From positions 650,047 to 714,046 of the forward strand of contig CAVWFS010000018.1 of NCBI GenBank assembly GCA_963754315.1: a stretch of 64,000 bases of DNA, given 5' to 3'. Source of the DNA: an uncultured Candidatus Rokubacteria bacterium (GTDB lineage: Bacteria > Methylomirabilota > Methylomirabilia > Rokubacteriales > CSP1-6). The notes beneath the pieces are model-generated. The model saw only the letters and a list, made by a program, of their open reading frames with translations, did no database searches and was not told the origin of the DNA. Below are positions 7,805 through 49,918 of the stretch, piece by piece (within the stretch, counting starts at the first letter, position 1; the number at the start of each line of letters is the position of its first letter). The translations under genes were made by a program, and so were the position numbers.

Positions 7805-8813
7805 GTGGACGAACTGAGAAAGGACACGACGAGCGGCCGTTGGGTTCTCGTCCGTCCGTCGTCCAAGCCCAACTCCGAGAGCGAGTGTTCCTACTGCCCG
7901 GGAGCGGAGCACCTGTCCGGCCCCGAGATCGCCGCGTACCGAAAGGACGGACCCCACCCCAACGGCCCAGGGTGGACGGTCCGGGTCGTACCGGAACGCG
8001 ATCCCTACTTTCGTATCGAGTGGGAGCTCGCGCGCGAGGGGATCGGTATGTTCGACATGATCACGCCTCGGGGGGCCAGCGAGCTGATCATCGAGTCGCC
8101 GACACATACCGACACCTTGGCGTCGATGGACGCCGAACACCTGGAGTCGATCCTCTGGATGTATCGGGACCGTATCATCGACCTCAAGCGCGACGGGCAG
8201 ATCCGCGACATTCTGATCTCGCGTCACCACAAGAAGCCGGGGGTTCCGAATCACCACCCGTACTCGCGGGTGTCAGCGATCCCCATCGTGTTCGATGCGA
8301 CCCGCCGAGAATTGCGGGAGGCGCGCGAGTACTACCAGTACAAGCGCCGATGCCTCTACTGTGACATCCTCCGCCAGGAGGTGGGGGCCGAGGAACGTCT
8401 TGTCCGTCTCACAAAGTTTTTCGCCGTCATCATCCCCTACGCCGCCCGCACCCCCCTGGAGACGTGGATCTTACCTCGACGTCATGGCTGCTCGTTCGAG
8501 GACGCCGTCAATCCTGAGACGACTGCAGACCTGGCCCGCCTGCTGTCAGGGTTCTTTCGCGCGCTGGCCACCGGGTCTGGAAGACCCGAGTTACGAGCTG
8601 GTCCTTCACAACGCTCCCAACATTCGTTCGCGAGTCATGCAAGGGGACTGGTCGAGTATCTACGATGACTATCACTGGCACATCGAGGTCATGACTCAAC
8701 TGGAGAGCGCCAATCGAGTGGGAGGCATCTACGTCAACGAGACGCCACCCGAGACATCGGCCGCCGCGCTGCGCGGTGCCTGGCAGGCGACCGGGGACGG
8801 TCTTCAGGGGTAA
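7805..8813 (+). CDS. GalT-like HIT-family nucleotidyltransferase (galactose-1-phosphate uridylyltransferase/ADP-glucose phosphorylase-like). The reading frame is broken by a +1 frameshift near 8572-8580, so this is either a sequencing error or a pseudogene.
   Basis: N-terminal CSYCPG Zn-motif and central YHWHIE (HxH) motif lie in two different frames: ORF 7688..8668 and ORF 8295..8813. Probable GTG start at 7805, just after the TPR gene stop. Confidence 0.65.
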
Positions 8814-10066
8814 AGACCACGGATTCGGTGACCCTCTGACACCCGGCGGATGCCCTCCATGAGGGCAGCGGTTCGCAGATCGACCCCTTCTTTGGATGCG
8901 ATGGCCCACACTCGGTTGAAGGCTCGCGTCATGACCTCCTGGAGCCTGGACACGATCTCCGTCTCTCGCCAGAAGTAGTACTGGAGGCCCTGGACCCACT
9001 CGAAGTAAGAGACCACCACACCTCCGGCGTTGGCCAGAATGTCGGGAACGACCGTCACCCCGCGTTCACGAAGGAGCTGATCGGCCTCCGGCGTCGTGGG
9101 GCCATTCGCGCCCTCCACCACGATGCTGGCCTTGATCCGCTCGGCGTTATCCTGGTGGATCTGCGAGCCGACCGCGGCCGGAAGCAGGATGTCACACGAC
9201 TGCTCGAGCAGTTCCGAGTTGGTCATGCTCTCTGTCCCTGCAAACCCCGCCACCGTACCGGCCTCGGCCACGTGACCTTCGAGAGCTCGAATGTCGATTC
9301 CGCGCTCGTTCCAAATGCCGCCCTGCACGTCGCTGACACCAGTGATCAGGGCGCCGTCGCGCCAGAGCAGGCGCGCCGCGACGGCTCCGACATTGCCAAA
9401 TCCTTGAATGGCCACCCTCCGTCCTCGCACTTCCTGCCCCAGGCGCTTGGCGGCCTGGTACAGCACGTACACGATGCCGCGGCCAGTCGCCTCCCGGCGG
9501 CCAGCGGACCCGCCAACAATCAAAGGCTTACCGGTGACGACGCCGGGTACGCTCTTGCCCTGGGTCATGGAGTAGGTGTCCATGACCCAGGCCATTGTCT
9601 GCTCGTCAGTGCCGAGGTCAGGAGCCGGGATGTCGAGGTCGGGGCCGATCATCAGGATGATCTCGGCCGTGTAGCGCCGGGTAAGGTTCTCGCGCTCCTG
9701 GACTGACAGCGCTCGGGGGTTACAGCGGACCCCACCCTTCGCCCCCCCGTAGGGCAAGTTCATCAGAGCGCACTTCCAGGTCATGAGCATGGCCAGGGCC
9801 GTGACCTCGCCCAGGTTGACGTCGAGGTCATAGCGGAGTCCACCCTTGGTCGGACCCAGAGCCGTGTTGTGATGGACACGGTACCCAATGAAAACGTTAG
9901 TTTTTCCGTCATCCATGCGAATCGGAATCGAGACCACCAGAGCCCGCCGAGGATACCGGAGGCGTTCGTGAACATCGCTCTCCAGCCCGATCTTGGAAGC
10001 CACGCGGTCCAGCTGGGCGACCGCGGTATGGTAAAGATGTGAATCGAATTCAGGATTTGCGGTCAT
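8804..10066 (-). CDS. gdhA: NAD(P)-specific glutamate dehydrogenase.
   Basis: Glu/Leu/Phe/Val dehydrogenase signature LPYGGAKGG and Rossmann segment GFGNVG. Start taken at MTANPEF. Confidence 0.9.
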   Translation of the reverse strand: MTANPEFDSHLYHTAVAQLDRVASKIGLESDVHERLRYPRRALVVSIPIRMDDGKTNVFIGYRVHHNTALGPTKGGLRYDLDVNLGEVTALAMLMTWKCALMNLPYGGAKGGVRCNPRALSVQERENLTRRYTAEIILMIGPDLDIPAPDLGTDEQTMAWVMDTYSMTQGKSVPGVVTGKPLIVGGSAGRREATGRGIVYVLYQAAKRLGQEVRGRRVAIQGFGNVGAVAARLLWRDGALITGVSDVQGGIWNERGIDIRALEGHVAEAGTVAGFAGTESMTNSELLEQSCDILLPAAVGSQIHQDNAERIKASIVVEGANGPTTPEADQLLRERGVTVVPDILANAGGVVVSYFEWVQGLQYYFWRETEIVSRLQEVMTRAFNRVWAIASKEGVDLRTAALMEGIRRVSEGHRIRGLYP

Positions 10067-10082
10067 GGGACCTCTTTTTCTC

Positions 10083-10088
10083 TTGACG
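10083..10088 (+). promoter_or_regulatory. putative sigma70 -35 hexamer (TTGACG) of the isc promoter.
   Basis: TTGACG about 110 nt upstream of the iscR start, followed by an AT-rich stretch (TGAAAAT) at appropriate spacing. Weak on its own. Confidence 0.3.
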
Positions 10089-10110
10089 CGCATCCGGGAT
10101 CGATGTGAAA

Positions 10111-10133
10111 ATACGACTAAATGAGTCGGCGAT
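10111..10133 (+). promoter_or_regulatory. IscR type-1 operator (autoregulatory site) upstream of iscR.
   Basis: ATACGACTAAATGAGTCGGCGAT fits the type-1 IscR consensus ATASYYGACTRwwwYAGTCRRSTAT. It contains the GACT-N5-AGTC inverted repeat and lies about 65 nt upstream of iscR. Confidence 0.55.
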
Positions 10134-10196
10134 CATAAAGATCGCCAACGGTTCGGGCTGTGACGCGTTCGAGCCGCCTCGGGGTGAGGGATATAG

Positions 10197-10655
10197 ATGC
10201 TCCGTTTTACCAAGCGTGCCGACTACGGGTTGATGGCGATTCATTATATCGCCGTCCACGAGGCAGTCGGTCCTGTCAGCGCGAAAAGGATCTCCGAGCA
10301 GTTCAATATTCCGCCGGAACTGCTGGCCAAGATCCTCCAGCGCCTGGCCAAGCGGGGACTGATCGCCAGCCAGAATGGGCCCAAGGGCGGCTATGTGCTG
10401 AGCCAGCGCTCGACCCAGGTAACGGTGGGGGATGTGATCCGGGCTCTCGAGGGGCCTGTACGCATCGTGAGCTGTTTGGAAGAATCGAGCGACTGCCCGC
10501 AACTGACCCGTTGCAATCTCCGCCGTCCCGTACAGAAGCTGCAGGTTGCCATCACCCAAATGCTGGACTCGATGAGCTTGGCCGAGCTGACCAGCGACGA
10601 CGTGCCAGAGATGCTTTCGATCGCCGGAACCAAGGAGGCCGACCGATGGCGTTGA
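10197..10655 (+). CDS. iscR: Fe-S cluster assembly transcriptional regulator IscR (Rrf2 family).
   Basis: Rrf2 HTH N-terminus (MLRFTKRADYGLMAIHYIA). Three Cys in VSCLEESSDCPQLTRC. Heads the isc operon. Confidence 0.9.
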   Translation: MLRFTKRADYGLMAIHYIAVHEAVGPVSAKRISEQFNIPPELLAKILQRLAKRGLIASQNGPKGGYVLSQRSTQVTVGDVIRALEGPVRIVSCLEESSDCPQLTRCNLRRPVQKLQVAITQMLDSMSLAELTSDDVPEMLSIAGTKEADRWR

Positions 10656-11872
10656 AGTTCCCGATCTTTCTGGACGCGCAGTCGACCACACCCGGCGATC
10701 CCCGGGTGATCGAGGCGATGATCCCATACTTCACCGAGAAGTTCGGTCATCCAGGCAGTCGTAACCACTCGTTCGGGTGGGAAGCGGAGAGCGCTGTCGA
10801 TCGCGCACGCGAACAGATTGGCAAGCTCATCGGTGCCCGCGATCCCAAAGAGATCGTCTTCACCTCCGGAGGGACGGAAGCGATCAACCTGGCCATCAAG
10901 GGTGTCGCCGAGATGTACCGGGAGAAGGGCAATCACATCGTCACCACCGCCATCGAGCAGCGCGCCGGTCTCGATGTCTGTCGGCGACTCGAGCGCCAGG
11001 GCTTCGTGGTGACCCACGTTCCTGTCCAGGCTGATGGGCTGGTGGACGTGGCCGAGATCGCCAAGGCCATCACCGACAAGACCATCCTGATTTCGGTGAT
11101 GTTCGCGAACAACGAGATCGGGACGATCCAGGACATCGCCGCCGTGGGCAAGCTGGCCAAGGACAAGGGAATCATCTTTCACACCGACGCAACCCAGGCC
11201 GTCGGCAAGATCCCTGTCAACGTGGAGAGCATGGGCGTCGATCTGCTCTCGTGTACCGCGCACCTGCTCTACGGGCCCAAGGGGGTGGGAGCTCTCTATG
11301 TCCGACGCAAAGCACCACGCGTTCGCATCGCGCCGCTTCTCGACGGTGGGGGGCACGAGCGCGGCATGCGATCGGGAACCCTTCCCGTTCCGCTCATCGT
11401 GGGCTTCGGGCGGGCGGCGGAGATTTGCGGCGAGGTGATGACGGAGGAAGGTCGCCGCCTGGCACGGCTGCGCGATACCCTGCAAGACACGATCTTGTCC
11501 AGCGTGGACGAGGCGTTTCTCAACGGCCACCCGGAGCGACGATTGCCGCACAACCTGAACATCTCGTTCGCCTACGTGGAGGGGGAGTCGGTCCTGATGG
11601 GGCTTAACAAGGAGACGGCCCTGTCGTCGGGGTCGGCCTGCACCTCGTCGACCCTGGAGCCATCCTACGTGATCGCCGCCCTCGGGGCCAGCGCCGAGCT
11701 CGCCCACTCCTCGATCCGCTTCAGCTTGCACCGGTTCACCACGGACGAGGAAGTGGCCTACGTGGGGAAGCGCACCATTGAGGTTGTGCAGCGTCTACGG
11801 GACATGTCGCCCCTTTACGAGCTGGCCAAAGAAGGTGTCGACCTGAAGACGATTCAGTGGAAAGCTGAGTAA
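10646..11872 (+). CDS. iscS: cysteine desulfurase IscS.
   Basis: MALKFPIFLDAQSTTP..., PLP-Lys context, active-site loop SSGSACTSS. Start overlaps the iscR stop and is preceded by AAGGAGG. Confidence 0.95.
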   Translation: MALKFPIFLDAQSTTPGDPRVIEAMIPYFTEKFGHPGSRNHSFGWEAESAVDRAREQIGKLIGARDPKEIVFTSGGTEAINLAIKGVAEMYREKGNHIVTTAIEQRAGLDVCRRLERQGFVVTHVPVQADGLVDVAEIAKAITDKTILISVMFANNEIGTIQDIAAVGKLAKDKGIIFHTDATQAVGKIPVNVESMGVDLLSCTAHLLYGPKGVGALYVRRKAPRVRIAPLLDGGGHERGMRSGTLPVPLIVGFGRAAEICGEVMTEEGRRLARLRDTLQDTILSSVDEAFLNGHPERRLPHNLNISFAYVEGESVLMGLNKETALSSGSACTSSTLEPSYVIAALGASAELAHSSIRFSLHRFTTDEEVAYVGKRTIEVVQRLRDMSPLYELAKEGVDLKTIQWKAE

Positions 11873-11887
11873 GGGAGGAGCCGGGGC

Positions 11888-12301
11888 ATGGCGTACAGCG
11901 AAAAGGTCGTAGACCACTACAACAACCCCCGCAACGTGGGGTCCTTCGCCAAGGATACGGCCGGAGTGGGGACAGGGCTCGTGGGGGCGCCGGAGTGCGG
12001 TGACGTCATGAAGCTTCAGATCAAGGTGAATCTCGAAACCGGGGTGATCGAGGACGCCAAGTTCAAGACCTTCGGGTGCGGGAGCGCCATCGCTTCCTCG
12101 AGCCTGGCCACCGAATGGTTGAAGGGGAGAACGGTGGAAGAGGCGGGGAAGATCAAGAACACCGACATCGTGAACGAGCTGAAGCTGCCCCCGGTCAAGA
12201 TTCATTGCTCGGTTCTCGCCGAGGACGCCATCAAGGCGGCTCTGGCGGACTACCGGGACAAGCAGGCGAAGTCGGCGGCGGGGACGGCCGCCCAGGGCTA
12301 G
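11888..12301 (+). CDS. iscU: Fe-S cluster scaffold IscU.
   Basis: GAPECGDVMKLQIKV...FKTFGCGSAIASSS...IHCSVLAEDAIKAA conserved IscU Cys/His ligands. Confidence 0.95.
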   Translation: MAYSEKVVDHYNNPRNVGSFAKDTAGVGTGLVGAPECGDVMKLQIKVNLETGVIEDAKFKTFGCGSAIASSSLATEWLKGRTVEEAGKIKNTDIVNELKLPPVKIHCSVLAEDAIKAALADYRDKQAKSAAGTAAQG

Positions 12302-12314
12302 GAGGGGATCAGTC

Positions 12315-12644
12315 ATGAGTGTCGCGCTCTCGGAAGCTGCTACGAAGCAGGTGAAGGAGCTCAAGCAGGCCCAACGCCTTCCCGACAACGTGTTCCTGCG
12401 CATGGGGGTGAAGGGCGGAGGCTGCTCGGGCATGGCGTACGCGCTGGAGTTCGACTCGGAGATCGGACCCCACGACAAGGAGTTCGAGGTCGATGGGGTG
12501 AAGGTTGTCGTCGACCGCAAGAGCTATCTGTATCTGAACGGCACCACGCTCGACTACGTCAAGCAGGGGTTGACAAGCGGCTTCACGTTCGTGAACCCCA
12601 ACGCCAAATCGAGTTGCGGGTGCGGGACATCGTTCTCGGCTTAA
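12315..12644 (+). CDS. iscA: A-type Fe-S carrier IscA.
   Basis: HesB/IscA signature GGGCSGMAY and C-terminal SCGCGTSF. Confidence 0.9.
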   Translation: MSVALSEAATKQVKELKQAQRLPDNVFLRMGVKGGGCSGMAYALEFDSEIGPHDKEFEVDGVKVVVDRKSYLYLNGTTLDYVKQGLTSGFTFVNPNAKSSCGCGTSFSA

Positions 12645-12664
12645 CCGGGTGAGGCGACCGCAAC

Positions 12665-12702
12665 GCCAACGGGCCCGGCTGACCGGGCCCGTTGGCATTT
12701 TT
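12665..12702 (+). terminator. perfect 14-bp GC-rich hairpin followed by a T-tract between iscA and hscB (intrinsic terminator or attenuator inside the isc operon).
   Basis: GCCAACGGGCCCGG-CTGA-CCGGGCCCGTTGGC followed by ATTTTT. Confidence 0.6.
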
Positions 12703-12724
12703 GGACATGCGTCGTGGGAGGGAC

Positions 12725-13316
12725 ATGGACTACTTCGAGATCTTCGGGCTGCCCCGGCGGTTGGCCGTTGACGAGAGCAGCGCTGCAGCGGCGCTTCTAT
12801 GAGCTATCCCGCCAGCATCACCCTGACTTTCATCTGGGTGCCTCGCCGGAGGATCAGGCGCGGGCCCTGAGCACATCGGCCCTGGTCAACGCCGCGTACC
12901 GCGCTCTGCGTGACCCCATCCGACGGATCGAGTATCTGCTTCGCCTCGAAGAGGGACGCGACGCGGAGGAGGGTGAAGCGGTCAAGCCCAAAGCCAGCCC
13001 TGGTCTGCTCGCCGAGATGTTCGAGATCCAGGAGGCACTCCAGGAAGCCAAGGGGGGCGGCGTCGACGAGGCCGGACTGGAGGCTCTGCGTCGGCAACGC
13101 GACGAGCTGAGCGCGCGCTGCCGCGCCGAGGAAACGCGCCTACAGGAGTCGCTTTCGCAGGCGTGGGACGCCGCCCCGCTCGTCGAGCGACCCCGAGCGT
13201 CGGCCGCTCTGCGGGAGGCGCTCGCCACTCGCGCCTATCTGCGGACCGTCATCGATGATCTCAGCCAGGTCCTGGGGGAGGAACAAGAGCCGCATGTCGC
13301 GCATCATCGGCATTGA
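12725..13316 (+). CDS. hscB: Fe-S co-chaperone HscB (J-domain). The N-terminus is encoded in a different frame from the rest of the gene, with an apparent +1 frameshift near 12776-12785.
   Basis: MDYFEIFGLPRRLAVDES (ATG 12725, frame 2) continues as ALQRRFYELSRQHHPDFH (HPD motif) in frame 0, which is ORF 12714..13316. Confidence 0.8.
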
Positions 13317-15126
13317 TCTGGGGACGACCAATAGCCTCGTCGCCTATGTGGACGAGGGGACGGGGCTTCCTCGCGTCATTGCCGACGCGAGCGGGGAAGT
13401 CCTGTTGCCATCCGTGGTCTCGTTCACCCCTGGCGGGATCCTCGTGGGGCATGCCGCGCGGCGCGCGCTGGTCAGGGAGCCGCGGAGCACGATCTATTCG
13501 GTCAAGCGGTTCATGGGGCGAGGTTTCGACGACGTCCGCGACGAGCTTCGCTACTTTCCGTTTACCGTGCGGGCGGTCGACGGCGTCGTCCGTCTGGTGG
13601 CCGGCGACCGTGAGGTGACGCCGCCCGAGGTGTCGGCCGTCATTCTCAAGTCCTTGCGGGAGCGGGCGGCGGCACACCTCGGGGAATCGATCGAGAAGGC
13701 GGTGGTCACCGTGCCCGCCTATTTCAACGATAGCCAGCGGCAGGCCACGCGTGACGCGGGCCGCATCGCGGGCCTCGACGTCGTCCGCATCGTCAACGAG
13801 CCCACGGCGGCTTCCCTCGCCTATGGGTTGCAGCGGCGCCGCGACGGCCTGATCGCCGTCTACGACCTTGGGGGCGGAACGTTCGATATCTCGATTCTGC
13901 GCGTGAAGGACGGAGTGTTCGAGGTGCTGGCCACCAATGGCGACACGCACCTCGGCGGCGACGACGTCGACCGGGCCATCCAGGTGATGTTCTTGGGGGA
14001 CATCCGAACCCGCCACGGGGTCGATCTGGGGGATGATGTCGAGGCCCTCCAGGAGCTCCGCTTGGCGGCGGAGGCAGCCAAGATCCGGCTGTCCACCGAG
14101 GAGCGGACCGTGGTGACCATCCCCTTCGATGGCTTCGTGTACCAGCGGCAGATGAGCCGCCGCGAGCTCGAGGTGCTCATGGAGCCCCTCGTCGCGCGAA
14201 CCCTCCAGCCGTGCCGGGGAGCCCTGCTCGATGCGGGGCTCACGGCAGCTGATATCGACGAGGTCGTTCTCGTGGGCGGATCGACCCGGGTGCCCCTGGT
14301 GCGCCGCCGCGTTCAGGAGCTGTTCGGGCGGACCCCGCACAGTCAGATCAACCCCGACGAGGTCGTGGCGCTCGGCGCCGCCGTGCAGGCTCACATCATG
14401 TCGGGAGGGATCGACCACATGCTGCTGCTCGATGTCACCCCGCTCTCGCTGGGGATCGAGACGTTGGGCGGCATCGTGAGCGTGCTCATTCATCGCAACA
14501 CGACCATCCCCACCAGTGCCAAGGAGCTGTTCACGACCTCGGTCGACGGACAGCGGGTGGTCGACCTGCACGTGGTGCAAGGCGAGCGCGAGCTGGCCAA
14601 GGACTGCCGCTCCCTCGCTCGCTTCGAGCTCTCCGACATCGATCCCATGCCGGCCGGTATGCCGAAGATCGAGATGACCTTCCTGATCGATGCCAATGGC
14701 ATCCTGCAAGTGACGGCGCGTGAGCTCCGCACGGGCAAGGTGGCCTCCATCGACGTGCGGCCGACGTACGGGTTGGCGGAGGCGGACGTGGCGCGGATGG
14801 TGGAAGAGTCGTTCACCTACGCGGAGGCGGACGTGGAGGCGCGCCTGCTCATCGAGACCCGCACGGAGGCCGAGACGGTCATCACGCACGTGGAGCGCGC
14901 CCTGCGGCAAGCGGGCGACCTCGCCACCGCCGAGGAGCGCGAGCAGATCGCCGCCGGGCTGGGGGAACTCCGGCGGGCGTGCGAGGGCACGGATCGAGAT
15001 CTCATCCGCGACAGGACCACCGAGCTCAACCGGATCACGGCCAGGCTGGCCGAGGAGATGATGGACGCCGCCCTCCGCGGGGCGCTCGGTCAGACGACGG
15101 CCGGGCAGAGGGAGGACCCCGCCTGA
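13294..15126 (+). CDS. hscA: Fe-S chaperone HscA (Hsp70 family).
   Basis: [18 protein letters not shown], Hsp70 signatures. Internal start MSRIIG chosen. Overlaps the hscB end. Confidence 0.9.
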
Positions 15127-19116: not shown

Positions 19117-19350
19117 CGAGGGCGTCCTGAGCGAGGTGGGGTTTGGGGGGGGGCCCGCCATTTCGGGGCCTACGAGAGCGAGCGCAGGACCGAGGGGCGC
19201 CCCGGGTAACCCGGGGCGTCCTGAGCGAAGGGGGGTTTGGGGGGCCATTTCGGGGCCCCCACGAGCGAGCGCAGGACCGAGGGGCGCCCCGGGTAACCCG
19301 GGGCGTCCTGAGCGAAGGGGGGTTTGGGGGGCCATTTCGGGGCCCCCCAA
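19117..19350. repeat. about 2.6 tandem copies of an ~87-bp GC-rich element carrying nested palindromes/hairpins (REP-like or MITE-like).
   Basis: Unit GGGGCGTCCTGAGCGAAGGGGGGTTTGGGGGGCCATTTCGGGGCCCCCACGAGCGAGCGCAGGACCGAGGGGCGCCCCGGGTAACCC is repeated directly. Contains GGGGCGCCCC, CCCGGG-TAA-CCCGGG and GGGGGGCC-ATTTC-GGGGCCCCC. Confidence 0.85.
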
Positions 19351-22374: not shown

Positions 22375-22557
22375 GAGCCCCCAGCATCTCCCGTTGGCGC
22401 CCTCGGGCCCCGAGGCGTTCGAGCGTCGGGTGGGGCGGCATGGGGGGGCCCGTTCGAGGCCCCAGCATCTGGCGTGGGATCGAGGGGCGCCCCGGGTTGC
22501 CCGGGGCGTGCCGAGCGTTGGGGGGGCATGGGGGGCCCGTTCGAGGCCCCCCATCTA
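22375..22557. repeat. about 2 tandem copies of a ~90-95-bp GC-rich hairpin element homologous to the 19117-19350 repeat.
   Basis: GGGGCGCCCCGGGTTGCCCGGGGCGTGCCGAGCGTTGGGGGGGCATGGGGGGCCCGTTCGAGGCCCCCC is roughly 80% identical to the unit at 19.2 kb. An upstream partial copy is ...CATGGGGGGGCCCGTTCGAGGCCCC. Confidence 0.8.
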
Positions 22558-24149: not shown

Positions 24150-24190
24150 AGCACCCGGGGGGGTGGGGGCCCTTTCGGGGCCCCCATGAG
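24150..24190. repeat. single copy of the GC-rich hairpin module (same family as 19.2 kb and 22.4 kb repeats). Sits between convergent BCCP and rpoD ends and is a likely bidirectional terminator.
   Basis: GCACCCGGGGGGGTGGGGGCCCTTTCGGGGCCCCCATGAGGC. The GGGGGCC-CTTTC-GGGGCCCCC hairpin matches the repeat core. Confidence 0.6.
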
Positions 24191-27520: not shown

Positions 27521-28239
27521 CCTCCCCCCGGTGGTCGGTCGTCATTCCGGCGCTGAATGAAGCCCGGCGCTTGCCTCCGTACCTCGCCCGGGTCGTGAGT
27601 TATTTCGATGCCCGGAGCGAGCCCTACGAAATCATCGTGGTCGACGACGGGAGCACCGACGACACGCTGGCCCGGGTCGAGAGCTTCGCGCGCGAGCACG
27701 GGGCCGTGCGCGGTCTTGCCTTGGCGGGCCATGAGGGCAAGGGCGCGGCCGTCCGCCGCGGCATGCTGGCCGCGGCGGGGACATACCGACTCTTTACCGA
27801 CGCGGATGGCGCGACGCCCATCGAGGAACTGGATCGTTTCGAGCCGGCCCTGGTTGCAGGAGCCGACATCGTCATCGGCTCGCGCACGGTTGGGGACGCG
27901 TCGGTAGCGGTAGTGTCTCGCTTGCATCGGTCCGCAGCGCGTAGTCTTTTCAGCTGGATGGTCAGCCGCCTCGGCCTGAAGGGCGTGTCGGATTCGCAGT
28001 GCGGCTTCAAGGCCTTCGAGGGAGCCGTGGCCGAGGCGCTCTTCGGAGCGCTTCGCACCCCAGGTCTCGCGTTTGACGTCGAACTGCTCATGCGCGCGCG
28101 GACGGCCGGCTACCACATCGTGGAGGTGCCGGTGAACTGGACCGAGCAGGCGGGTGGCAGGGTCGGCATCCTCCGGCACGGACCGTTGATGGCCCTGGAG
28201 ATCCTGCGCGTCCGGCGGCGGCTCAAGGGTTTGTCGTGA
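27517..28239 (+). CDS. family-2 glycosyltransferase (polyprenol-phosphate sugar transferase, ArnC/DPM1-like).
   Basis: VVIPALNE...IIVVDDGSTDDT...DADG motifs typical of GT2 polyprenyl-phosphate glycosyltransferases. ATGA overlap with the upstream gene. Confidence 0.8.
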   Translation: MTSPRWSVVIPALNEARRLPPYLARVVSYFDARSEPYEIIVVDDGSTDDTLARVESFAREHGAVRGLALAGHEGKGAAVRRGMLAAAGTYRLFTDADGATPIEELDRFEPALVAGADIVIGSRTVGDASVAVVSRLHRSAARSLFSWMVSRLGLKGVSDSQCGFKAFEGAVAEALFGALRTPGLAFDVELLMRARTAGYHIVEVPVNWTEQAGGRVGILRHGPLMALEILRVRRRLKGLS

Positions 28240-29394
28240 GACGGGCGCAGCGCGCGCTGGCGGTCGAGCCGTTCCTCGCCGTGGAGATCGCCGAACGCGC
28301 CCAGGCCTTGGAGCGCGGCGGCGCCGACATCGTGCACTTCGAGTTCGGCGAGCCGGATTTCCAGGCACCCTCCGTCGTGCTCGAAGCCGCCGCAGAAAGC
28401 GCTCAAAGACGGACGGACTAAGTACACGTCCAGCCTCGGTATCCTCCCGCTGCGGGAAGCCATCGCCGAACACTATCTCAGTACCTACGGCGTGGCCATC
28501 TCGCCCGATCAGATCCTGGTCACGCCGGGAACGTCACCGGCCATGCTCCTGCTCTTCGGGCACTTGCTGGATCCGGGGGACGAGGTGATTCTGAGCGATC
28601 CCTACTACGCGTGTTATCCCCACTTCATCCGGTATGCGGACGGCGTCCCGGTCTTCGTACCCATCTTCGAGGCGGATCAGTTCCAGTACCGGCCAGAGGC
28701 GATTGACCAGCAACGGGGGCCGCGGACGCGCGCGGTCCTCGTGAACTCGCCGGCAAATCCGACAGGGGCTGTCCTCAGCGCGCAGCGGATGGCGGCCGTG
28801 GCGCGACTGGCGGACCAGGAAGGTCCCTTCATCGTTTCCGACGAGATCTATCACGGTCTCAGCTACGAGGGGCGTGACCACTCGATCCTGGAGTTCACGG
28901 AGCGTGCCTTCGTCCTCAACGGGTTCTCCAAGGCGTTTGCCATGACGGGGTGGCGGCTCGGTTACCTGATCGGCCCGGCGGACCATATCAGGGCCCTGCA
29001 GACGCTATACGGAAACTTCTTCATCGCGACCAACGAATTCGTGCAGTGGGCGGGGGTGGCAGCGCTGCGCGAGGCCCACGAGGACGTTCGCCGTGCTCGC
29101 GCGATCTTCGACGAGCGGCGTCGCGCCATGGTGGCCGGTCTTCGTGAAGTCGGACTGGGGGTGGGTTTCGAGCCGACCGGGGCCTTCTACGTGCTTGCCG
29201 ACGCCCGCCGGTATACGAATGATTCGGCCCGTTTCGCCTACGAGATCCTGGAAAGGAGCCACGTGGCAGTGACACCCGGCGCTGCCTTCGGCCCTCGGGC
29301 TGAGGGATACTTGCGATTCTCCTACGCCACGTCGGTTGATCGGATTGGGGAGGGGCTGCGCCGTATCAGGCGTTTTCTGGACGATCTAGGGTGA
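28236..29394 (+). CDS. class I/II PLP-dependent aminotransferase (aspartate/aromatic aminotransferase-like). Apparent +1 frameshift near 28392-28402 splits off the N-terminal 55 codons.
   Basis: ORF 28236..28421 (IVHFEFGEPDFQAP...) and ORF 28492..29394 (NPTGAVL, SKAFAMTGWRLGY PLP-Lys region) are consecutive parts. The intervening KALKDGRTKYTSSLGILPLREAIAEHY is readable in the downstream frame. Confidence 0.8.
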
Positions 29395-31581: not shown

Positions 31582-32262
31582 ATGAGGGAAACGAAGCAGG
31601 CCAAGCGGGCCCGGGTGCGCACGATTTTCCGCCTTCTCGAGCGCGCGTATCCCGATGCGAAGATCGCGCTCGACTTCACCACCCCGCTCGAGCTGCTGGT
31701 GGCCACCATCCTCGCCGCGCAATGCACGGACGCCCGCGTCAACCTCGTGACCCCTTCCTTGTTCCGCGCCCACCGTTCGGCCCGCGACTACGCCTCCGCC
31801 GATCCGGGCGTTCTCGAGGAGGAGGTCCGCTCGACGGGCTTCTTTCGGGCCAAGACCCGCGCCATTATCGGGATGGCGCGCGCGCTGCTCGAGCGCCACG
31901 GCGGCGAGGTGCCGCGCAGCCGGCAGGCCCTGACGGCCTTGCCGGGGGTGGGACTCAAGACTGCGAACGTGGTGCTTGGCAATGCGTTCGGCGAACCCGC
32001 CATCGCCGTCGATACTCACGTGCTGCGCATCGCGCAGCGTCTTGGCCTGGCGCGGGGGGGCGATGCGGATCGCGTCCACGACCAACTCGTCGAGGTGCTT
32101 CCGCGTGCGACCTGGACGCGGTTCTGCCATCTGATCCAGGCGCACGGCCGTCGCACGTGCACGGCGTTGAAGCCAGCCTGTCCGGTGTGTCCCGTTCGGG
32201 CGCAGTGCCCCTGGCCAGGCAAAACGTCCTCGCCCAGGACGAGCAAGAGGCGCGCTCCTTGA
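31582..32262 (+). CDS. nth: endonuclease III (DNA glycosylase/AP lyase).
   Basis: HhH-GPD motif (LPGVGLKTANVVL) and C-terminal 4Fe-4S ligands CTALKPACPVCPVRAQC. Confidence 0.9.
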   Translation: MRETKQAKRARVRTIFRLLERAYPDAKIALDFTTPLELLVATILAAQCTDARVNLVTPSLFRAHRSARDYASADPGVLEEEVRSTGFFRAKTRAIIGMARALLERHGGEVPRSRQALTALPGVGLKTANVVLGNAFGEPAIAVDTHVLRIAQRLGLARGGDADRVHDQLVEVLPRATWTRFCHLIQAHGRRTCTALKPACPVCPVRAQCPWPGKTSSPRTSKRRAP

Positions 32263-36324: not shown

Positions 36325-36930
36325 GTGGCGACGGACGCGCAGACGGTCAGGGAGCTCCGGGACCAAACCGGAGCGGGAGTCATGGACTGCAAGGTCGCCC
36401 TGCAAGCCACGAGCGGCGATCTCCAGGCTGCCCTCGAGTACTTGCGCAAGAAGGGATTGGCCGACGCCGCCAAGCGCGGGCATCGGGAGACACGCGAAGG
36501 ACTGGTAGAGGCGTACATCCATCCGGGTGGGAAGCTCGGCGTGCTGGTCGAGGTCGCTTGTGAGACGGACTTCGTGGCGAAGACCGATGCCTTCCGGGAG
36601 CTGGTGCGCGACCTGGCGATGCAGGTCGCAGCCGCCAATCCTGCCTACGTGTCGCGGGACGAGGTCCCGCCCCACGTACTCGAAAAGGAGCGTGAGATCT
36701 ATCGTGCCCAGATGGCCGACCAGAAGAAGCCGCCGCCCGTGCTCGATAAGATCGTCGAGGGCAAGCTCGAAAAGTTCTTCAGTGAGCAGTGCCTCCTCGA
36801 GCAGGCCTTTGTGAAGGACGCCTCCGGCAAGACCCGGGTCAAGGACGTGGTCGATGGGGTCAACGCCAAGACCCAAGAACGCATCGTCATCAAGCGCTTT
36901 GCCCGCTTCAGGATCGGCGAGGGGGGGTAG
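36325..36930 (+). CDS. tsf: elongation factor Ts (short form).
   Basis: VRELRDQTGAGVMDCKVAL...KKG and LVEVACETDFVAKTDAF motifs. Confidence 0.9.
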   Translation: MATDAQTVRELRDQTGAGVMDCKVALQATSGDLQAALEYLRKKGLADAAKRGHRETREGLVEAYIHPGGKLGVLVEVACETDFVAKTDAFRELVRDLAMQVAAANPAYVSRDEVPPHVLEKEREIYRAQMADQKKPPPVLDKIVEGKLEKFFSEQCLLEQAFVKDASGKTRVKDVVDGVNAKTQERIVIKRFARFRIGEGG

Positions 36931-39871: not shown

Positions 39872-41043
39872 AACGTCTTACCATCCTGGGCGCCACCGGG
39901 TCCGTTGGCCTGCGAGCCCTCGAGCTGGTCTCGAGCTTTCCCGAGGAGTTTCGGGTGGTTGGCCTCGCCGCGCGGGGCTCCAACATCGACCTGCTCGCCG
40001 ATCTCTGCCGCAAGTACGGACCCAAGGCGGTGGCCCTGCTCGATGAGGGGGCCGTCGATCGCCTCGCCGCCGTGCTGCCGGCTCCGCGGCCGGAGCTCCT
40101 CCGCGGGCCGGCCGGACTGATTGAGCTGGCTGGCCAAGTGGACGCCGATATCGTGATCTCCGCGCTGGTGGGGGCGGCAGGCTTGCTTCCCACCATGGCC
40201 GCCATTCGGGCGGGCCGAACGCTCGCCCTCGCCAACAAGGAAACTCTCGTCATGGCGGGCAGCCTCATGACGGCGGCCGCCCGCGCGCGGGATGTAGCGC
40301 TTCTGCCCGTGGATTCCGAGCACAGCGCAGTGTTTCAATGTCTGCAGGGGCACAACCGGCAGGATGTGCACCGCATCCTCCTCACGGCGTCCGGTGGGCC
40401 TTTCCGTAATCGGCCCAAGGACGCGTTTGAGTCCATCACCGTGGAGGATGCCCTTCGTCATCCCACCTGGAAGATGGGCGCCAAGATCACCATCGATTCG
40501 GCAACCCTGATGAACAAGGGTCTCGAGATCATCGAGGCACGCTGGCTGTTCGACCTGGCGCCTGACCGCATCGCGGTCGTCGTGCACCCACAGTCGATCG
40601 TCCACTCCATGGTCGAGTACATCGACGGATCGATCATCGCGCAACTCGGGGTCGCCGACATGGGGGTGCCTATCCTCTATGCCTTGACCTACCCGGAGCG
40701 TCGCCCCACGCCCGCCGCTCGGCTCGACCTCGCGCGGATTGGCCAGCTGACCTTCGAGGAGCCCGACACCGACCGGTTCCCCTGCCTTGCTCTGGCGCGT
40801 GCCGCCCTGACGCAGGGTGCCCGGGCCCCGGTCGTGCTCAACGCCGCCAACGAAGTCGCGGTGGCAGCTTTCCTCGAACGCCGCCTCGGATTTGCGGATA
40901 TCCCTATACTGATCGAGCGGGCTCTCTCGGCTGATCCCGGGGGAGGCTTAAACTCCATCGAAGAGTGTGTCGCGGTCGACGGTGAGACACGTCGGCGCGT
41001 GCAGGCGCTCGTCGATCAGCGTGCGGGAGGGCGATCGAAGTGA
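39868..41043 (+). CDS. dxr: 1-deoxy-D-xylulose 5-phosphate reductoisomerase.
   Basis: LTILGATGSVG, LANKETLV, DSEHSAVFQC motifs. ATGA overlap with cdsA. Confidence 0.9.
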   Translation: MKRLTILGATGSVGLRALELVSSFPEEFRVVGLAARGSNIDLLADLCRKYGPKAVALLDEGAVDRLAAVLPAPRPELLRGPAGLIELAGQVDADIVISALVGAAGLLPTMAAIRAGRTLALANKETLVMAGSLMTAAARARDVALLPVDSEHSAVFQCLQGHNRQDVHRILLTASGGPFRNRPKDAFESITVEDALRHPTWKMGAKITIDSATLMNKGLEIIEARWLFDLAPDRIAVVVHPQSIVHSMVEYIDGSIIAQLGVADMGVPILYALTYPERRPTPAARLDLARIGQLTFEEPDTDRFPCLALARAALTQGARAPVVLNAANEVAVAAFLERRLGFADIPILIERALSADPGGGLNSIEECVAVDGETRRRVQALVDQRAGGRSK

Positions 41044-42402
41044 CCACGGTCGTATCGTTCATTGTCGTCATCGGGGTCCTGATCCTGATTCACGAGCTTG
41101 GCCACTTCATCATGGCGCGGCTGACCGGGGTCGGTGTGGAGCGGTTTTCCATCGGCTTCGGCCCCGTGCTCCTGCGCTGGCGCGGCAAGGAGACCGAGTA
41201 CTGCCTGTCCGCGATTCCCATGGGCGGATACGTAAAGATGGTCGGCGAGGAGAACCCGCTCGAAGGCGGTGGGTCGGCGGCCTCCGATCCTGCGAAAGCC
41301 TTTGCCACCAAGCCCCTCTGGGCCCGCTTCCTCATCGTCTTCGCTGGCCCGGCGATGAACTTCGTCCTGGCCGCCGTGATCTTCGCCATCGTGCTCGGTA
41401 CCGTGGGCCGCCCGGTGTGGCCGGCCGTGGTGGGTAAGGTCGCACCCGGGGGACCAGCGGCAGCTCTGCAGAGCGGAGACCTTGTCGTGCGGGCGAACGG
41501 CGAGGCCGTCCGGAGCTGGGAGGATCTGGATCGGGTGATCGCCGCGTCGCATGGCCGCCCCCTGCAGCTTGTGGTAAAGCGGGCCGGCGTCGAGCAGACC
41601 CTGATGCTGACCCCGCGTCACTCCGTCACGCGCGATCCCATTTTCAAGGAACCGCGGGACACATGGGACATTGGGGCGGGTCCCCAGCTCACCCCGCAGA
41701 TCGGTATCGTGAACGGCGGCTCGCCGGCAGAGCGGGCGGGGCTCAAGCCGGGGGATGTCATCCTCGCCGTGTCTGGGGAACCGGTCTTCACGCCCGAGGA
41801 TCTGATGCTGGCTATCCAGAAGCGGCCCGGGCAAACGTTCGACCTCACCGTCGAACGGGGCGGGCAGCGCCAGACGCTCCCCGTGTCCGCCGAGCGCAAG
41901 ATCGACAAGAGTCCATCCGGCGAGGAGGTCGAGGTCGGCCGCATCGGCGTGTCCATCGTCACCCGGACCGTGAGGTACGAGCCCTATTCGCCGTTGGCCG
42001 CCGTGTGGTACGGCGGCGTACGGACGTGGGATATGACGGCTGGTGACGGTGAAGGGGTTGTGGAAGATTGTCTCCCGCCAGATCGACTCCTCGAACATTG
42101 GTGGTCCCATCCAGATCGCATCCGAAGCGGGTCGGCAGGCTCAGGAAGGGCTTGGTTCCCTCGCTCTCTTCACGGCCATCATCAGCGTGAACCTGGCCGT
42201 GCTGAACTTGCTGCCGGTGCCGATGCTCGACGGTGGCCACTTGTTGTTCTTCGTCATCGAAGCCGTGCTGGGCCGACCGCTGTCGCTCCGGAAGCGCGAG
42301 GCCGCTCAGCAGCTCGGATTCGTGCTCCTGGTCCTCCTCATGGTGTTCGCGCTCTACAACGACCTTGTGCGGATTGACGCCTTCAAGTTCCTACGCCAAT
42401 AG
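41040..42402 (+). CDS. rseP: RIP zinc metalloprotease RseP (site-2 protease). Apparent +1 frameshift near 42036-42040 separates the last ~119 codons.
   Basis: HELGHFIMA (HExxH), PDZ domain, then ORF 42043..42402 carrying the NLLPVPMLDGGHLLF motif. Junction TWDMT/LVTVKGLWK aligns with E. coli RseP. Confidence 0.85.
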
Positions 42403-42409
42403 AGGATCT

Positions 42410-43489: not shown

Positions 43490-43490
43490 G

Positions 43491-45203: not shown

Positions 45204-45237
45204 GCTTGCCTGGTCCCCAACCTCGTGCTAAAGTCTT

Positions 45238-45266
45238 GAAAAAGTGGGCGTCGCCCACTTTTTTAC
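45238..45266 (+). terminator. rho-independent terminator downstream of proS (bidirectional A-tract/hairpin/T-tract).
   Basis: AAAAAGTGGGCGTCGCCCACTTTTTT. Confidence 0.7.
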
Positions 45267-45281
45267 TTTTGGTGATCGCCG

Positions 45282-45749
45282 ATGCCGGACGACGCTCAAC
45301 TCGCGCGGATCGAGAAGGTCATCCAGCCGGTGCTGGGAGAGCATGGCTTGGAACTGGTCGATCTCGACTGCAGAGGCGTCCGTCCGCGTGCTGTGCTGCG
45401 GGTGTTTGTCGACAAGGTGGGTGGAGTGCGGGTGGCTGACTGCGAGCGGTTAAGTCGGGAACTGGGGGATATCCTGGACGTGGCGGGTGTGATCGAAGGC
45501 GCCTACGACTTGGAGGTGTCCTCACCCGGCCTGGACCGGCCCCTCCGCAAGGAGCGAGAGTTCCGCTGGGCGCTCGGAAAGCCCGTGCGATGCTGGGTCG
45601 CCGGGGGAGAGGAGTTCGCCGGGCGTCTGGCCGAAGTGGCGGATGAGCGGCTCGTGCTGGAACGCGCGGGGCAACGAGTGGAAGTCTCCCGTGCGGCATT
45701 GACCAAGGCTCGCCTCGACATCGAGATACCCTGGTCGCGGCGACCGTGA
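45282..45749 (+). CDS. rimP: ribosome maturation factor RimP.
   Basis: RimP family (LELVDLDCRG...VFVDK...LEVSSPGLDRPL). Immediately upstream of nusA. Confidence 0.85.
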   Translation: MPDDAQLARIEKVIQPVLGEHGLELVDLDCRGVRPRAVLRVFVDKVGGVRVADCERLSRELGDILDVAGVIEGAYDLEVSSPGLDRPLRKEREFRWALGKPVRCWVAGGEEFAGRLAEVADERLVLERAGQRVEVSRAALTKARLDIEIPWSRRP

Positions 45750-45756
45750 CGATAGC

Positions 45757-47073
45757 GTGAATCGCGAACTGATTACCGTGATCGAGCAGATTGGACGCGA
45801 GAAGGGGATCAATCCCGAAATCCTCTTCGAGGCGCTGGAGTCTGCCCTCCTGTCGGCCGCCAAGAAGACCCCCGACAGCGTGCGCATGGAACTGGATCGC
45901 AAGACGGGGGCCCTGCGCCTGTACGGGCGGAAGAAGGTCGTCCAGGAGGTCGAGGATCCCTCCATGGAAGTCGCCCTAGGCGAAGCGAAGGCCCTCAACC
46001 CGGCCGCCGAAGTGGGGGACGAGCTGGAGCAGGAGCTTCCCCCCCAGCAGTTCGGGCGCATCGACGCCCAGCGCGCCAAGCAGGTGATCCTGCAGCGCGT
46101 GCGCGACGCCGAGCGCGAGAGCATCTACTCGGAGTTTGCCAACAAGGAAGGGCAGATTGTCCGGGGCGTGATTCATCGGATCGAGAAGCGTAACGTGATC
46201 CTAGAGATCGGGAAGGCAGAGGCCGTTCTCCCCGAGCGCGAGCAGATTCCCGGTGAGCGCCACAATCCAGGCGATCGCGTCCGCGCGTATGTCCTGGAAG
46301 TGCGGCGCACGGCCAAGGGGCCTCAGGTGGTTCTCTCACGGACGCACCCCGGATACCTGGTTCGACTCTTCGAAACGGAGATTCCCGAGATTCAGGAGGG
46401 GATCGTGATTGTGAAGGCCGCTGCTCGCGAAGCAGCGGAGCGAGCCAAGGTTGCGGTGGCGTCGACCCGGCGCGACGTCGATCCGATCGGGGCCTGCGTC
46501 GGACTGCGGGGCACGCGGATCCAGGTCATCAGCCGGGAGTTGCGGGGCGAGAAGATTGATATCATCGAGTGGTCGCAGGATCCCTCCACCTTCGTGGCCC
46601 GAGCGCTGTCCCCGGCCAAAGTCTCGTCGGTGACCATCGCCGAGTCAGAGGGTCAGGAGGACACTCCGGCTGCGCTCGTGGTGGTTGCTGATAACCAGCT
46701 CTCGCTAGCCATCGGCAAGAAGGGGCAGAACGCGCGGCTGGCCGCCAAGCTCACCGGGATGCGGATTGATATCAAGAGCGAGTCGGAGCTTGAGGCCGAG
46801 GAGGCGGCGACGGGCACGGAGCCGCGTGCCGCGCTCCTGAGTCTCCCCGAGGTGTCGGTGGAGATCGCCGATGCGCTCGTGTCAGCTGGCCTGGGTTCGC
46901 CCGGTGCCATCGTTCATGCGGGGGTCGATCGTCTGCGGGAGGTTCACGCGATCGGCTCACACTCCGAGACAATCTATCGGGCGGCTGAAGAGTGGGTGGC
47001 GGCCCGACGCTCCCCGGCGGTCTCCCCAAGCGCGGAGGCGTTCACGCCGGATCCGCCCGCGGACCAGACGTGA
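45757..47073 (+). CDS. nusA: transcription termination/antitermination factor NusA.
   Basis: N-terminal NusA domain, S1, two KH domains (GACVGLRGTRIQ). GTG start. Confidence 0.9.
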   Translation: MNRELITVIEQIGREKGINPEILFEALESALLSAAKKTPDSVRMELDRKTGALRLYGRKKVVQEVEDPSMEVALGEAKALNPAAEVGDELEQELPPQQFGRIDAQRAKQVILQRVRDAERESIYSEFANKEGQIVRGVIHRIEKRNVILEIGKAEAVLPEREQIPGERHNPGDRVRAYVLEVRRTAKGPQVVLSRTHPGYLVRLFETEIPEIQEGIVIVKAAAREAAERAKVAVASTRRDVDPIGACVGLRGTRIQVISRELRGEKIDIIEWSQDPSTFVARALSPAKVSSVTIAESEGQEDTPAALVVVADNQLSLAIGKKGQNARLAAKLTGMRIDIKSESELEAEEAATGTEPRAALLSLPEVSVEIADALVSAGLGSPGAIVHAGVDRLREVHAIGSHSETIYRAAEEWVAARRSPAVSPSAEAFTPDPPADQT

Positions 47074-47336
47074 GCGAACCTCAGCGCACCTGTGTCGGCT
47101 GTCGTCAGGCCCGGCCCGCGCGAACCCTGATTCGGCTTGTTCGCCGCCCATCGGGTGAGGTGGTGGTGGATTCGACGAAACGGCTGCCCGGGCGCGGTGC
47201 CTATCTCTGCCCGGGGCCTGCATGCCTCGCGCGCGGTCTCGAGCGTGGCCGTCTCGCGCACGCGTTCCGGAAACCATGTGAGGTCAGGGTCAACCTGGCC
47301 GAGGAGGTGAGCGAGCGGTGGCCGCAGCCAAGGTGA
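47070..47336 (+). CDS. ylxR: YlxR/RnpM (DUF448) RNA-binding protein.
   Basis: RTCVGCRQ...GRGAYLCP motif. Conserved position between nusA and infB. GTG start overlaps the nusA stop. Confidence 0.7.
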   Translation: MSEPQRTCVGCRQARPARTLIRLVRRPSGEVVVDSTKRLPGRGAYLCPGPACLARGLERGRLAHAFRKPCEVRVNLAEEVSERWPQPR

Positions 47337-49918
47337 AGGTGATCGAACTCGCCAAGGAGCTTGGCGTGACCAGTAAGGACCTGATGGTCGCCGCCGAGGA
47401 GATGGGGCACAAGGGCGTGCGCGCCATGACACCCCTCGATAGCACGCTCGCCAACGCCCTCCGCGTCAAGCTCGGTAAGGGCCGCGATCTGCCCGAAGAG
47501 CCGAAACCGAAGCGTCCCGCCCGGGTCAAGACAGCCGAGGGCAGCCGAGGGCAGTGGAGTTGTTGACGGGGCGCCGGCCAAGATCGTGCGCCCGCGACGG
47601 CCGACACAAGCCACCGAGGAAGAGCCGCTCGAGCTACGACCGGCCGCGACCATTGTGAAGCCCAAGCCGGTCCCTGTTAGCGTTGAACCTCTCGTCGAGC
47701 CCACCCCCGCCGTCAAGTCCGAGGTCAAAACGGAGCCGGAGCCTCCACTTGTGGAGCCTGTCACGCCTGCTGTGGTTCCAATCGAACCCCTTGTCTCTCG
47801 CCCCCTCCGGTACCTCCTCCCCCGCCCAGGAAGCCGGAGCCGAGGATCGTGCCTTTCCGGCCGAGCGAGCGGCCAGGTCCCACGCCCCCCGCCCGCACAC
47901 CACGCCAACCCTTTGGACCGTTCTCACCTCCGCGCGTGACGATGGGTCCGCCGAGGCCGGCGGCACCGCCTCTGCCTCCGCGTCAGCCTCGTCCGTCTGC
48001 GGAGCCCGTGCCGGTGGTCGCACCGGCCGCTGCAACCTTGTCGCCGACGGCTGCCATGCCATCACCGTTGGCCGCCCCGCCCCCATCGACGGTCGTGGAG
48101 GCTACCGCTCCACCGGTCGTTCCCGAGACCCTCGTCGCCCCGGCTGCCGTCACCGAGACGCCGCCAGTCGAAGTCAAGCGCGAGCTCATCAGGGTGCCGG
48201 AGTCGGTCACCGTGGCCGAGTTGGCCGAAAAGATGCGCCGCAAGTCGGGTGAGGTCATCAAGGCTCTGCTCGAGCTCGGCGTCATGCGGATGGTCAACGA
48301 CTTGCTCGATCCGACCGAAGCCAAGCTGGTTGCCGACAAGTTCAACGTGGACCTCGAGATTCGCTCGATGGAAGGTGGCCTGGTGGAGGAGGACGAGGTC
48401 GATCCCGCGCAGCTGACCCTGCGTCCGCCCGTCGTCACGGTCATGGGGCACGTCGACCACGGCAAGACCTCTCTGCTCGATGCCATCCGGCGCACCAAGG
48501 TCGCCGAGAAGGAGTTTGGTGGCATCACCCAGCACATCGGCGCCTACCAGGTGATGACCTCGCACGGCAAGGTAACCTTCCTCGACACGCCAGGTCACGA
48601 AGCGTTCACGGCCATGCGCGCCCGCGGAGCCCAGGCGACCGACATCGTGATCCTCGTGGTAGCCGCCGACGACGGCGTGATGCCGCAGACCGTGGAGGCG
48701 GTCAGCCACGCCCGAGCCGCCAACGTCCCGATCATCGTCGCTGTCAACAAGGTCGACAAGCCCGAGGCCGACCCGGATCGGGTCAAGCGCGAGCTGGCCA
48801 ACCTCAACCTCGTTCCCGAGGAGTGGGGCGGGCAGACCATCTACGTACCGACATCGGCCAAGAGAGGGACGGGTATTGATCAGCTCCTGGAAATGACTGC
48901 GCTGCAAGCAGAAGTCCTCGAGCTCCGGGCCAACTCCAACCGTGCCGCCAAGGGTGTGATCATCGAGAGCCGTCTCGATCGTGGACGCGGTGCGGTGGCG
49001 ACGGTGCTGATCCAGAATGGGGCCCTGCACGAGGGCGACGCTGTCGTGGTCGGTTCACACTCGGGGCGCATCCGGGCCCTGGTCGATCCGGCGGGCAAGA
49101 AGGTCAAGACGGCGGGGCCGTCCGATGCGGTCGAGGTCCTGGGGCTGTCCGGGGTGCCCTCGGCCGGCGACGTTCTCGTGGCAGTCTCCGACGAGCGCAA
49201 GGCGCGGCAGATTGCGGGCATGCGTCAGGATCGCGACAAGTCCAAGACAAAGGCGGCGACCCGCATCACCCTGGAAGGGCTGCACAAGCAGATTCAGACG
49301 GGCGAGGTGAAGGAGCTGCGGCTGATTCTCAAGGCCGACGTGCAGGGCTCGGTGGAGGCCCTGACTGAGTCACTGGAACGACTGTCGACGGACGAAGTCA
49401 AGCTGAAGGTCATTCACGCCTCGGTGGGGGCGATCAACGAGAGCGACGTCATGCTGGCGTCGGCCTCCAACGCGATCGTCCTCGGCTTCAACGTCAAGGC
49501 AGAAGGCAAGGCGGCTACCCAGGCGCAGTCCATTGGGGTTGACGTGCGCCACTACAACGTCATCTACGAGGCCATCAACGACCTGAGGGCAGCCCTGGCT
49601 GGTCTGCTGGCGCCGGAGATCCGTGAGACGATCATCGGCCGCGCCCAGGTACGGCAGATGTTCAGCATCTCCAAGCTGGGCCCGATCTGCGGCAGCTACG
49701 TGGAGGAGGGCAAGATCACCCGAACCGGACGCGTCCGCGTCAAGCGGGGGACCGAGGTGTTTGGCGAGGGCACCGTCTCGTCCCTCAAGCGCTTCAAGGA
49801 CGAGGTGCGTGAGGTGGCGGCTGGCCTCGACTGCGGAATCGGCGTCACCGTCAGCGGGGTACAGGCCGGCGACGTCCTCGAGATCTTCAGCACCGAGGAA
49901 GTGGCGCGCACGCTCTGA
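47318..49918 (+). CDS. infB: translation initiation factor IF-2. As sequenced, the gene is interrupted in the low-complexity linker by a 10-bp tandem duplication (+1) and a second 1-nt indel (-1) about 260 nt downstream.
   Basis: Three consecutive ORFs are involved. 47318..47566 is the IF2_N domain ([17 protein letters not shown]). 47586..47939 is the Pro/Ala/Val-rich linker. 47849..49918 carries the G-domain ([24 protein letters not shown]) and the C-terminal domains. Confidence 0.85.
47533..47552 (+). repeat. perfect 10-bp tandem duplication (AGCCGAGGGC x2) inside infB that shifts the frame and leads to a TGA 12 nt later.
   Basis: Direct reading of ...ACAGCCGAGGGCAGCCGAGGGCAGTGG... Removing one copy fuses ORF 47318 with ORF 47586. 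Confidence 0.8.

Follow-up and report, generated by a model that had tools for sequence, protein, structure and literature searches.

Within the window, meaning the whole analysed stretch of 64,000 nucleotides (positions 650,047 to 714,046 of contig CAVWFS010000018.1 in assembly GCA_963754315.1, from an uncultured Candidatus Rokubacteria bacterium), five protein-coding genes are each interrupted by a shift of reading frame: a GalT-like gene encoding a nucleotidyltransferase of the HIT family, hscB encoding a J-type co-chaperone, a gene for a class I/II aminotransferase dependent on pyridoxal phosphate (PLP), rseP encoding a site-2 metalloprotease, and infB encoding IF-2. The breaks correspond to six events that together introduce seven bases, and these events, with the short tandem repeat that one of them completes, are located as follows.

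8576, inserted T, in the GalT-like gene at 7805..8813 (plus strand)
12778, inserted C beside a G-to-A difference, at codon 18 of hscB at 12725..13316 (plus strand)
28392, inserted G, at codon ~52 of the aminotransferase gene at 28236..29394 (plus strand)
42038, inserted G, at codon ~333 of rseP at 41040..42402 (plus strand)
47535, inserted C, in infB at 47318..49918 (plus strand)
47794-47795, inserted TC, turning (TC)2 into (TC)3, in infB at 47318..49918 (plus strand)
47535..47554, plus strand, perfect 10-bp tandem repeat CCGAGGGCAG x2, recognised by alignment to the sister sequences L012, L013 and L006

The frame breaks were located by a frame plot of G+C content at third codon positions (GC3) together with three-frame translations, and were fixed exactly by alignment to sister contigs of about 99% identity. 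In the plot the coding phase switches within continuous coding sequence at about 8530-8560, 12770-12800, 28250-28400 and 42040, and twice in 47300-47960, and in translation the conserved protein sequence resumes in a different frame at each break. Every frame break claimed by an initial annotation of this DNA is therefore present, the jumps lying inside the five genes at, or no more than 5 nt from, the coordinates given there. The count is another matter: the initial annotation spoke of six split genes, whereas alignment to the sisters yields five genes and six events, and its tally of five single extra bases, one 10-bp tandem duplication and one -1 indel would make seven events instead of six. 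The duplication is the same event as the C at 47535, which falls within a pre-existing imperfect repeat, and what was taken for a -1 indel is actually the two-base insertion at the TC repeat. Pairwise and multiple alignments place all the insertions in the window contig alone. The 55 genes between window positions 2314 and 60228 show no additional frameshift and no premature stop, and just one more coding indel, an in-frame GGC at 56035.

The sister contigs were found by exact-protein look-ups with small proteins that are intact in the window (IscA, Frr, S15, DUF503, S9 and IscR) and are 98-99% identical to it. They comprise contigs in the style of long-read assemblies (ERZ25039531 contig_43192, ERZ25039565 contig_4295, ERZ25039541 contig_119374 and ERZ25039555 contig_27198) and many low-coverage short-read contigs from SPAdes and JGI, including L004, L005, L014 and L015. 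Comparison of orthologous loci had been proposed as a check in the initial annotation, and the related contigs are without all six insertions: these are missing from every one of the 3-7 other sequences covering each site, which include up to four long-read assemblies as well as short-read contigs, the latter covering three of the six sites and lacking the insertion in each. Deleting the seven bases gives open reading frames (ORFs) of 335, 196, 385, 453 and 865 amino acids, equal in length to those of contig_43192 and differing by 1-10 amino acids, and the repaired RseP, IF-2, HscB and aminotransferase show end-to-end profile matches. Over multi-way alignments of ~54 kb, the private indels of the window amount to seven inserted columns (the six events) and no deletions, all of them frame-breaking, while most of the indels by which the other assemblies differ from one another preserve the frame (3, 21 or 24 nt) or are intergenic.

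Because the insertions are private to one contig, because their removal restores full-length proteins of sister length, and because long-read sister contigs err likewise at other places with the same bias towards insertion, the six breaks are, on this comparison of sequences, very probably insertion errors of the consensus, introduced in assembly or polishing, with the real genes intact. The preference of the initial annotation for assembly indel errors is thereby upheld. Look-ups beyond the sister contigs added little: exact-protein searches with the window's RimP, its GT2 glycosyltransferase, the 445-aa truncated RseP and the 82-aa IF-2 fragment gave no match, the two truncated products being absent from 153 billion gene positions, pattern scans of metagenome contigs for the intact and the inserted alleles at the rseP site and the second infB site matched neither, and the IscR look-up for a short-read witness of the GalT-like site returned only contigs too short to span it.

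The individual genes differ in how the break is placed and in how firmly the repaired product can be named. In the GalT-like gene the extra T stands between GGG and CTGGAA, and the incoming frame reaches a stop 90 nt on; T 8576 is missing in L001, L002 and L003, in each of which the gene encodes 335 aa, and its deletion gives a protein of this same length with 1 aa difference. This repaired protein has borderline matches to Pfam GalP_UDP_transf and GalP_UDP_tr_C. Because it scores below the NCBIfam equivalog cut-offs for GalT (67.5 against 102.1 for TIGR00209 and 80.8 against 448 for NF008724), the label galT is unwarranted and only the name "GalT-like" is justified. The hscB gene lies between iscA and hscA in the isc operon, and at its break the sisters read GAGGG-AGCG where the window reads GAGAGCAGCG. 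The inserted C 12778 is missing in L001, L002 and L003, where HscB is 196 aa long, and in the short-read contig L004, and the repaired HscB likewise has 196 aa, with 6 aa differences from the sister. It exceeds the Pfam thresholds for DnaJ (PF00226, 31.9 against 27.8) and HSCB_C (PF07743, 28.9 against 22.1), and the J domain, the HSCB C-terminal domain and the isc-operon context that identify HscB are all present.

The aminotransferase gene carries its extra base at 28392-28393, where the GC of the window corresponds in the sisters to a single C (CAA, Gln) or a single G (GAA/GAG, Glu). The gene is intact at 385 aa in L021 and L023; L020 and L022 are likewise without the insertion at 28392, and frameshifts of their own elsewhere split their aminotransferase ORFs. 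The repaired protein of 385 aa has the length of that in L021, differs from it at 4 aa and matches NCBIfam aminotransferase models over its full length. The break in rseP lies upstream of the LDG motif, the window reading GGC at 42038 where the sisters read GC (Leu) or GG (Val). This G is missing in the short-read contig L005 and in L012, L013, L020, L021, L022 and L023, and RseP is 453 aa long in all of these apart from L020, where an error of its own leaves 393 aa. After repair the window's RseP also has 453 aa, with 3 aa differences, and scores 328.1 bits with TIGR00054 (cut-off 147.55) over profile positions 5-419 of 421.

Both insertions in infB fall in the non-conserved N-terminal linker, upstream of the conserved core. 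They sum to 3 nt and give no mutual rescue, because the incoming frame meets a stop codon at 47564, which is 29 nt past the first of them. At that first site the sisters already hold CGAGGGCAG-C-CGAGGGCAG, so that the single C at 47535 completes the perfect repeat; the TC at 47794-47795 is also missing in L013, L014 and L015. The repaired IF-2 has 865 aa, the length in L012, with 10 aa differences, and its residues 287-865 score 787.9 bits with TIGR00487 against a cut-off of 424.4. The same linker is affected in another way in L014 (JGI 3300045370 Ga0495071_0001938), in which 79 nt between two similar short repeats, at window ~47540-47620, are deleted and infB is split into 86 + 607 aa; either a collapse of the repeats in assembly or genuine variation could explain it.

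Related genomes of this clade in GTDB carry names of the form MFDxxxxx.bin with "contig_N" records, a naming that appears to match the Microflora Danica long-read project, and long reads alone were most probably the basis of the window contig. In the Microflora Danica project Nanopore reads were assembled by themselves with metaFlye and polished once with Medaka, short reads playing no part in the polishing, and the authors name microdiversity among the limiting factors (PMC12313526); Nanopore consensus sequences are known to be prone to frameshifts caused by indels (PMC9262707). The window resembles other long-read-only metagenome consensus sequences of this kind (Nanopore, metaFlye and Medaka; IDEEL-type tests), in which single-base indels truncate or split conserved genes (PMC9262707, PMC12313526), and it resembles them further in that the errors are private to one assembly, are scattered at random over essential and non-essential genes and vary in rate among contigs of the same population. 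It departs from the usual picture in that its events lie outside homopolymers, are exclusively insertions and in several cases sit at strain single-nucleotide polymorphisms (SNPs), where they look like two alleles placed in tandem.

The sister contigs display this mode of error more amply. L013, L020, L022 and L023 each have 13-44 private inserted columns against 1-7 deleted, and the private columns of the long-read sisters, when pooled, number 120 inserted against 18 deleted (p=1e-19). The genes disrupted by their frameshifts, essential ones among them, include rpoD, rpsB, tsf, dxr, pnp and infB, the positions varying from contig to contig; contig_43192 is nearly clean of private indels. Short-read contigs from other samples, ~45 kb in all, have essentially no coding frameshifts, the sole exception being an extra A at window position 32090 within nth in L029, a contig of chimeric appearance. 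Because the long-read sisters are noisy with insertions and the short-read contigs are nearly free of frameshifts, the frameshifts in these sequences follow the type of assembly rather than the lineage.

Homopolymer-length miscalls, the best-known type of Nanopore consensus error (PMC9262707) and the mechanism offered as an example in the initial annotation, fit poorly with the sites themselves. None of the six lies in a run of at least four identical bases; the inserted base is unlike both of its neighbours at 8576, 12778 and 28392, it lengthens a run only at 42038 and 47535, in each case to a length of 2, and the remaining event at 47794 is an extra unit of a dinucleotide repeat. Two intergenic differences between the window and its sisters, at 19145 and 24157, do lie in G runs and are of the kind that such miscalls would produce. 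For the six coding events, in which no single-base site has a run longer than 2 after the insertion, the classical homopolymer explanation is very unlikely.

A mechanism better suited to these sites would start from a mixture of strains. Where co-assembled strains differ by a SNP, the consensus may write both alleles adjacently, so that G and C become GC; the base added by the merged alleles would shift the reading frame. The events as such are insertions of one base, once of two, at non-repetitive positions, and a part of them at least probably arose by such merging. At 28392 and 42038 the two alleles of a C/G polymorphism among the sisters do stand side by side in the window as GC. The same pattern occurs in the sisters: L020 and L023 read GC at window position 36672, against C or G in the others, and three private insertions of L023 likewise show both alleles in tandem. 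Of the six window events, three have a polymorphic column no more than 2 nt away, compared with 0.8 expected (p=0.03), and the same holds in L020, L022 and L023 taken together for 32 of 62 private insertions, against a background of 0.26 (p=2e-5). An extra G common to two different long-read assemblies is found at 28815 in the aminotransferase gene (L020 and L022) and at 36672 in tsf (L020 and L023); these shared bases are a recurrent, context-dependent consensus error and not random noise.

Recoding during expression, in which programmed ribosomal frameshifting or transcriptional slippage would make full-length proteins from the sequence as given, was also weighed. Five of the six events could be corrected by the same +1 shift, and a single extra nucleotide relative to a continuous ORF is also the arrangement of prfB-type programmed +1 frameshifting. 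The window differs from that system in that no shift site is conserved, no stimulatory context shows in the sequence motifs scanned, and the orthologues are unshifted: there is no X_XXY_YYZ heptamer within 30 nt of any site, in agreement with the initial annotation, which had seen no ribosomal frameshift signal, and no prfB-like stop context. Slippage would need an A/T run of a length that is absent at the sites, the longest run nearby being C5, and the orthologous sites in the sisters are uninterrupted ORFs, so that the shift would not be conserved even within the species. Because slippery heptamers and long A/T runs are missing and the orthologous sites are unshifted, recoding is excluded for practical purposes and is the least probable of the explanations considered.

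There remains the reading that the insertions are real in one strain, in which the GalT-like gene, hscB, the aminotransferase gene and rseP would be very recent pseudogenes and IF-2 would be produced in an N-terminally truncated form from an internal start. The insertions are, after all, present in the sequence as given, and the ORF that begins at GTG 47849 (689 aa) keeps the whole IF-2 core, which corresponds to repaired residues 287-865. There are bacteria in which hscB and rseP are dispensable. Frameshifted ORFs that continue in another phase are a feature shared with the pseudogenes of genome decay, for example in host-restricted bacteria. The difference from these is that the window shows neither a rise in the ratio of nonsynonymous to synonymous polymorphism (pN/pS) nor nonsense mutations, that its breaks are unshared with relatives of 99% identity, and that housekeeping genes such as infB are affected.

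Selection on the genes was put in numbers by a codon-by-codon comparison of the 55 genes (53 kb), with the window in repaired frame set against contig_43192, the cleanest sister. The five broken genes have a pN/pS ratio of 0.153, compared with 0.111 for the 50 intact ones (Fisher p=0.25), and nonsense mutations are absent from all 55. By this measure the broken genes appear still to be under purifying selection, a test that very recent mutations would escape, pN/pS having not yet had time to rise. The relaxed selection or degeneration that the initial annotation put forward as an alternative accordingly finds no support here, pN/pS being not significantly raised. Real mutations would also have to place six private frameshifts in 53 kb of coding sequence where the 99%-identical sister contig has zero, in a window that lacks nonsense mutations and has no private indel that is in-frame or intergenic; they would have to be insertions only, with the same bias as the evident noise of the sister long-read contigs, and at two sites they would have to imitate merged SNP alleles. 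The six insertions occur in no other assembly, and their truncated products are unrecorded among the gene positions searched. That the insertions are real mutations is thus improbable, and slightly less probable still is a strain in which at least some of them are genuine and which lives without functional RseP and HscB and with an IF-2 truncated from GTG 47849.

Several points nevertheless weigh against consensus error as the explanation. The verdict draws on the comparison of assemblies rather than on read support, and at 8576, 28392 and 47535 long-read assemblies are the sole witnesses. The sequencing platform of the window contig is a deduction. No affected gene is strictly proven to be essential in this phylum, and IF-2 could in principle start at the internal GTG. 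As to the mechanism, only two of the six sites directly show the signature of both alleles, and the window considered by itself has a modest excess of events near polymorphic columns. Consensus error in a long-read assembly is nonetheless the reading retained here, with strain mixing as a likely contributor.

The surroundings of the broken genes are those of an ordinary bacterial chromosome segment. G+C content is 65% across the window, and gene tables and ORFs show a gene order that is ordinary for housekeeping loci, with the following runs of genes.

Run 1: BatA/VWA protein, TPR protein, GalT-like gene, gdh
Run 2: iscR-iscS-iscU-iscA-hscB-hscA-fdx-iscX
Run 3: rpoD, malic enzyme, GT2 glycosyltransferase, aminotransferase
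Run 4: rplM-rpsI, argC, argJ
Run 5: rpsB-tsf-pyrH-frr-uppS-cdsA-dxr-rseP-ispG-proS-rimP-nusA-infB-rbfA-nrnA-truB-ribF-rpsO-pnp
Run 6: pur genes

Rfam and tRNA scans of the window gave no matches. In a scan of genome contigs, the window's NusA is at most 76% identical to that of species representatives labelled Candidatus Rokubacteria, Rokuibacteriota or Methylomirabilota, and because its relatives bear these labels the organism is, judged by sequence, an uncultured member of the Rokubacteria/Methylomirabilota phylum.

Other variation in the population was encountered along the way. Three polymorphisms preserve the reading frame: the GGC at 56035-56037, at the C-terminus of pnp, is present in the window and missing in contig_43192, 24 nt of nusA (46399-46422) are missing in L014, and 21 nt of infB (48975-48995) are missing in L016. 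Those indels between assemblies that are plausibly genuine preserve the frame in this way, in contrast to the six frameshifts. Divergence from contig_43192 has a hotspot in the nrnA-like DHH gene (50578-51564) and rbfA (50225-50581); nrnA has a pS of 0.084 and a pN of 0.021, against about 0.02 and 0.002 elsewhere, and the adjacent truB has a pS of 0.004, which suggests recombination between strains. The intergenic region that separates dinB from a hypothetical gene contains an 87-bp tandem repeat (window 19157-19347; 2.2 copies, 96% matches), which varies in copy number among the sister contigs. The GC-rich hairpin motif GGGGGCCATTTCGGGGCCCCC within this repeat recurs intergenically at 22531-22551 and 24165-24185 (0-3 mismatches), giving 4 matches against 0 expected, and looks like a REP-like (repetitive extragenic palindromic) or terminator-like family. 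In ERZ25039531 contig_43192 the last ~14 kb (L003/L111, 511458-524972) are an inverted second copy of the isc region of L001/L110 (480419-500748), with 16 deleted columns against 1 inserted and with split genes; this copy looks like a fold-back or chimeric artefact at the contig end.

The broken frames are very probably an assembly artefact and hold no biological novelty, and their biological weight is small, since the genes concerned are ordinary housekeeping genes, which the population has in intact form. Errors that avoid homopolymers, consist of insertions only and are partly placed at SNPs would represent a concrete and checkable failure mode of long-read consensus sequences in strain-rich soil metagenomes, of relevance to the polishing and quality-checking of long-read metagenome-assembled genomes. 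Automated annotation of the contig, which needs repair of the frameshifts, will yield truncated or split proteins, as the initial annotation foresaw, for the GalT-like protein, HscB, the aminotransferase, RseP and IF-2, and such split annotations could pass for gene loss in an uncultured phylum.

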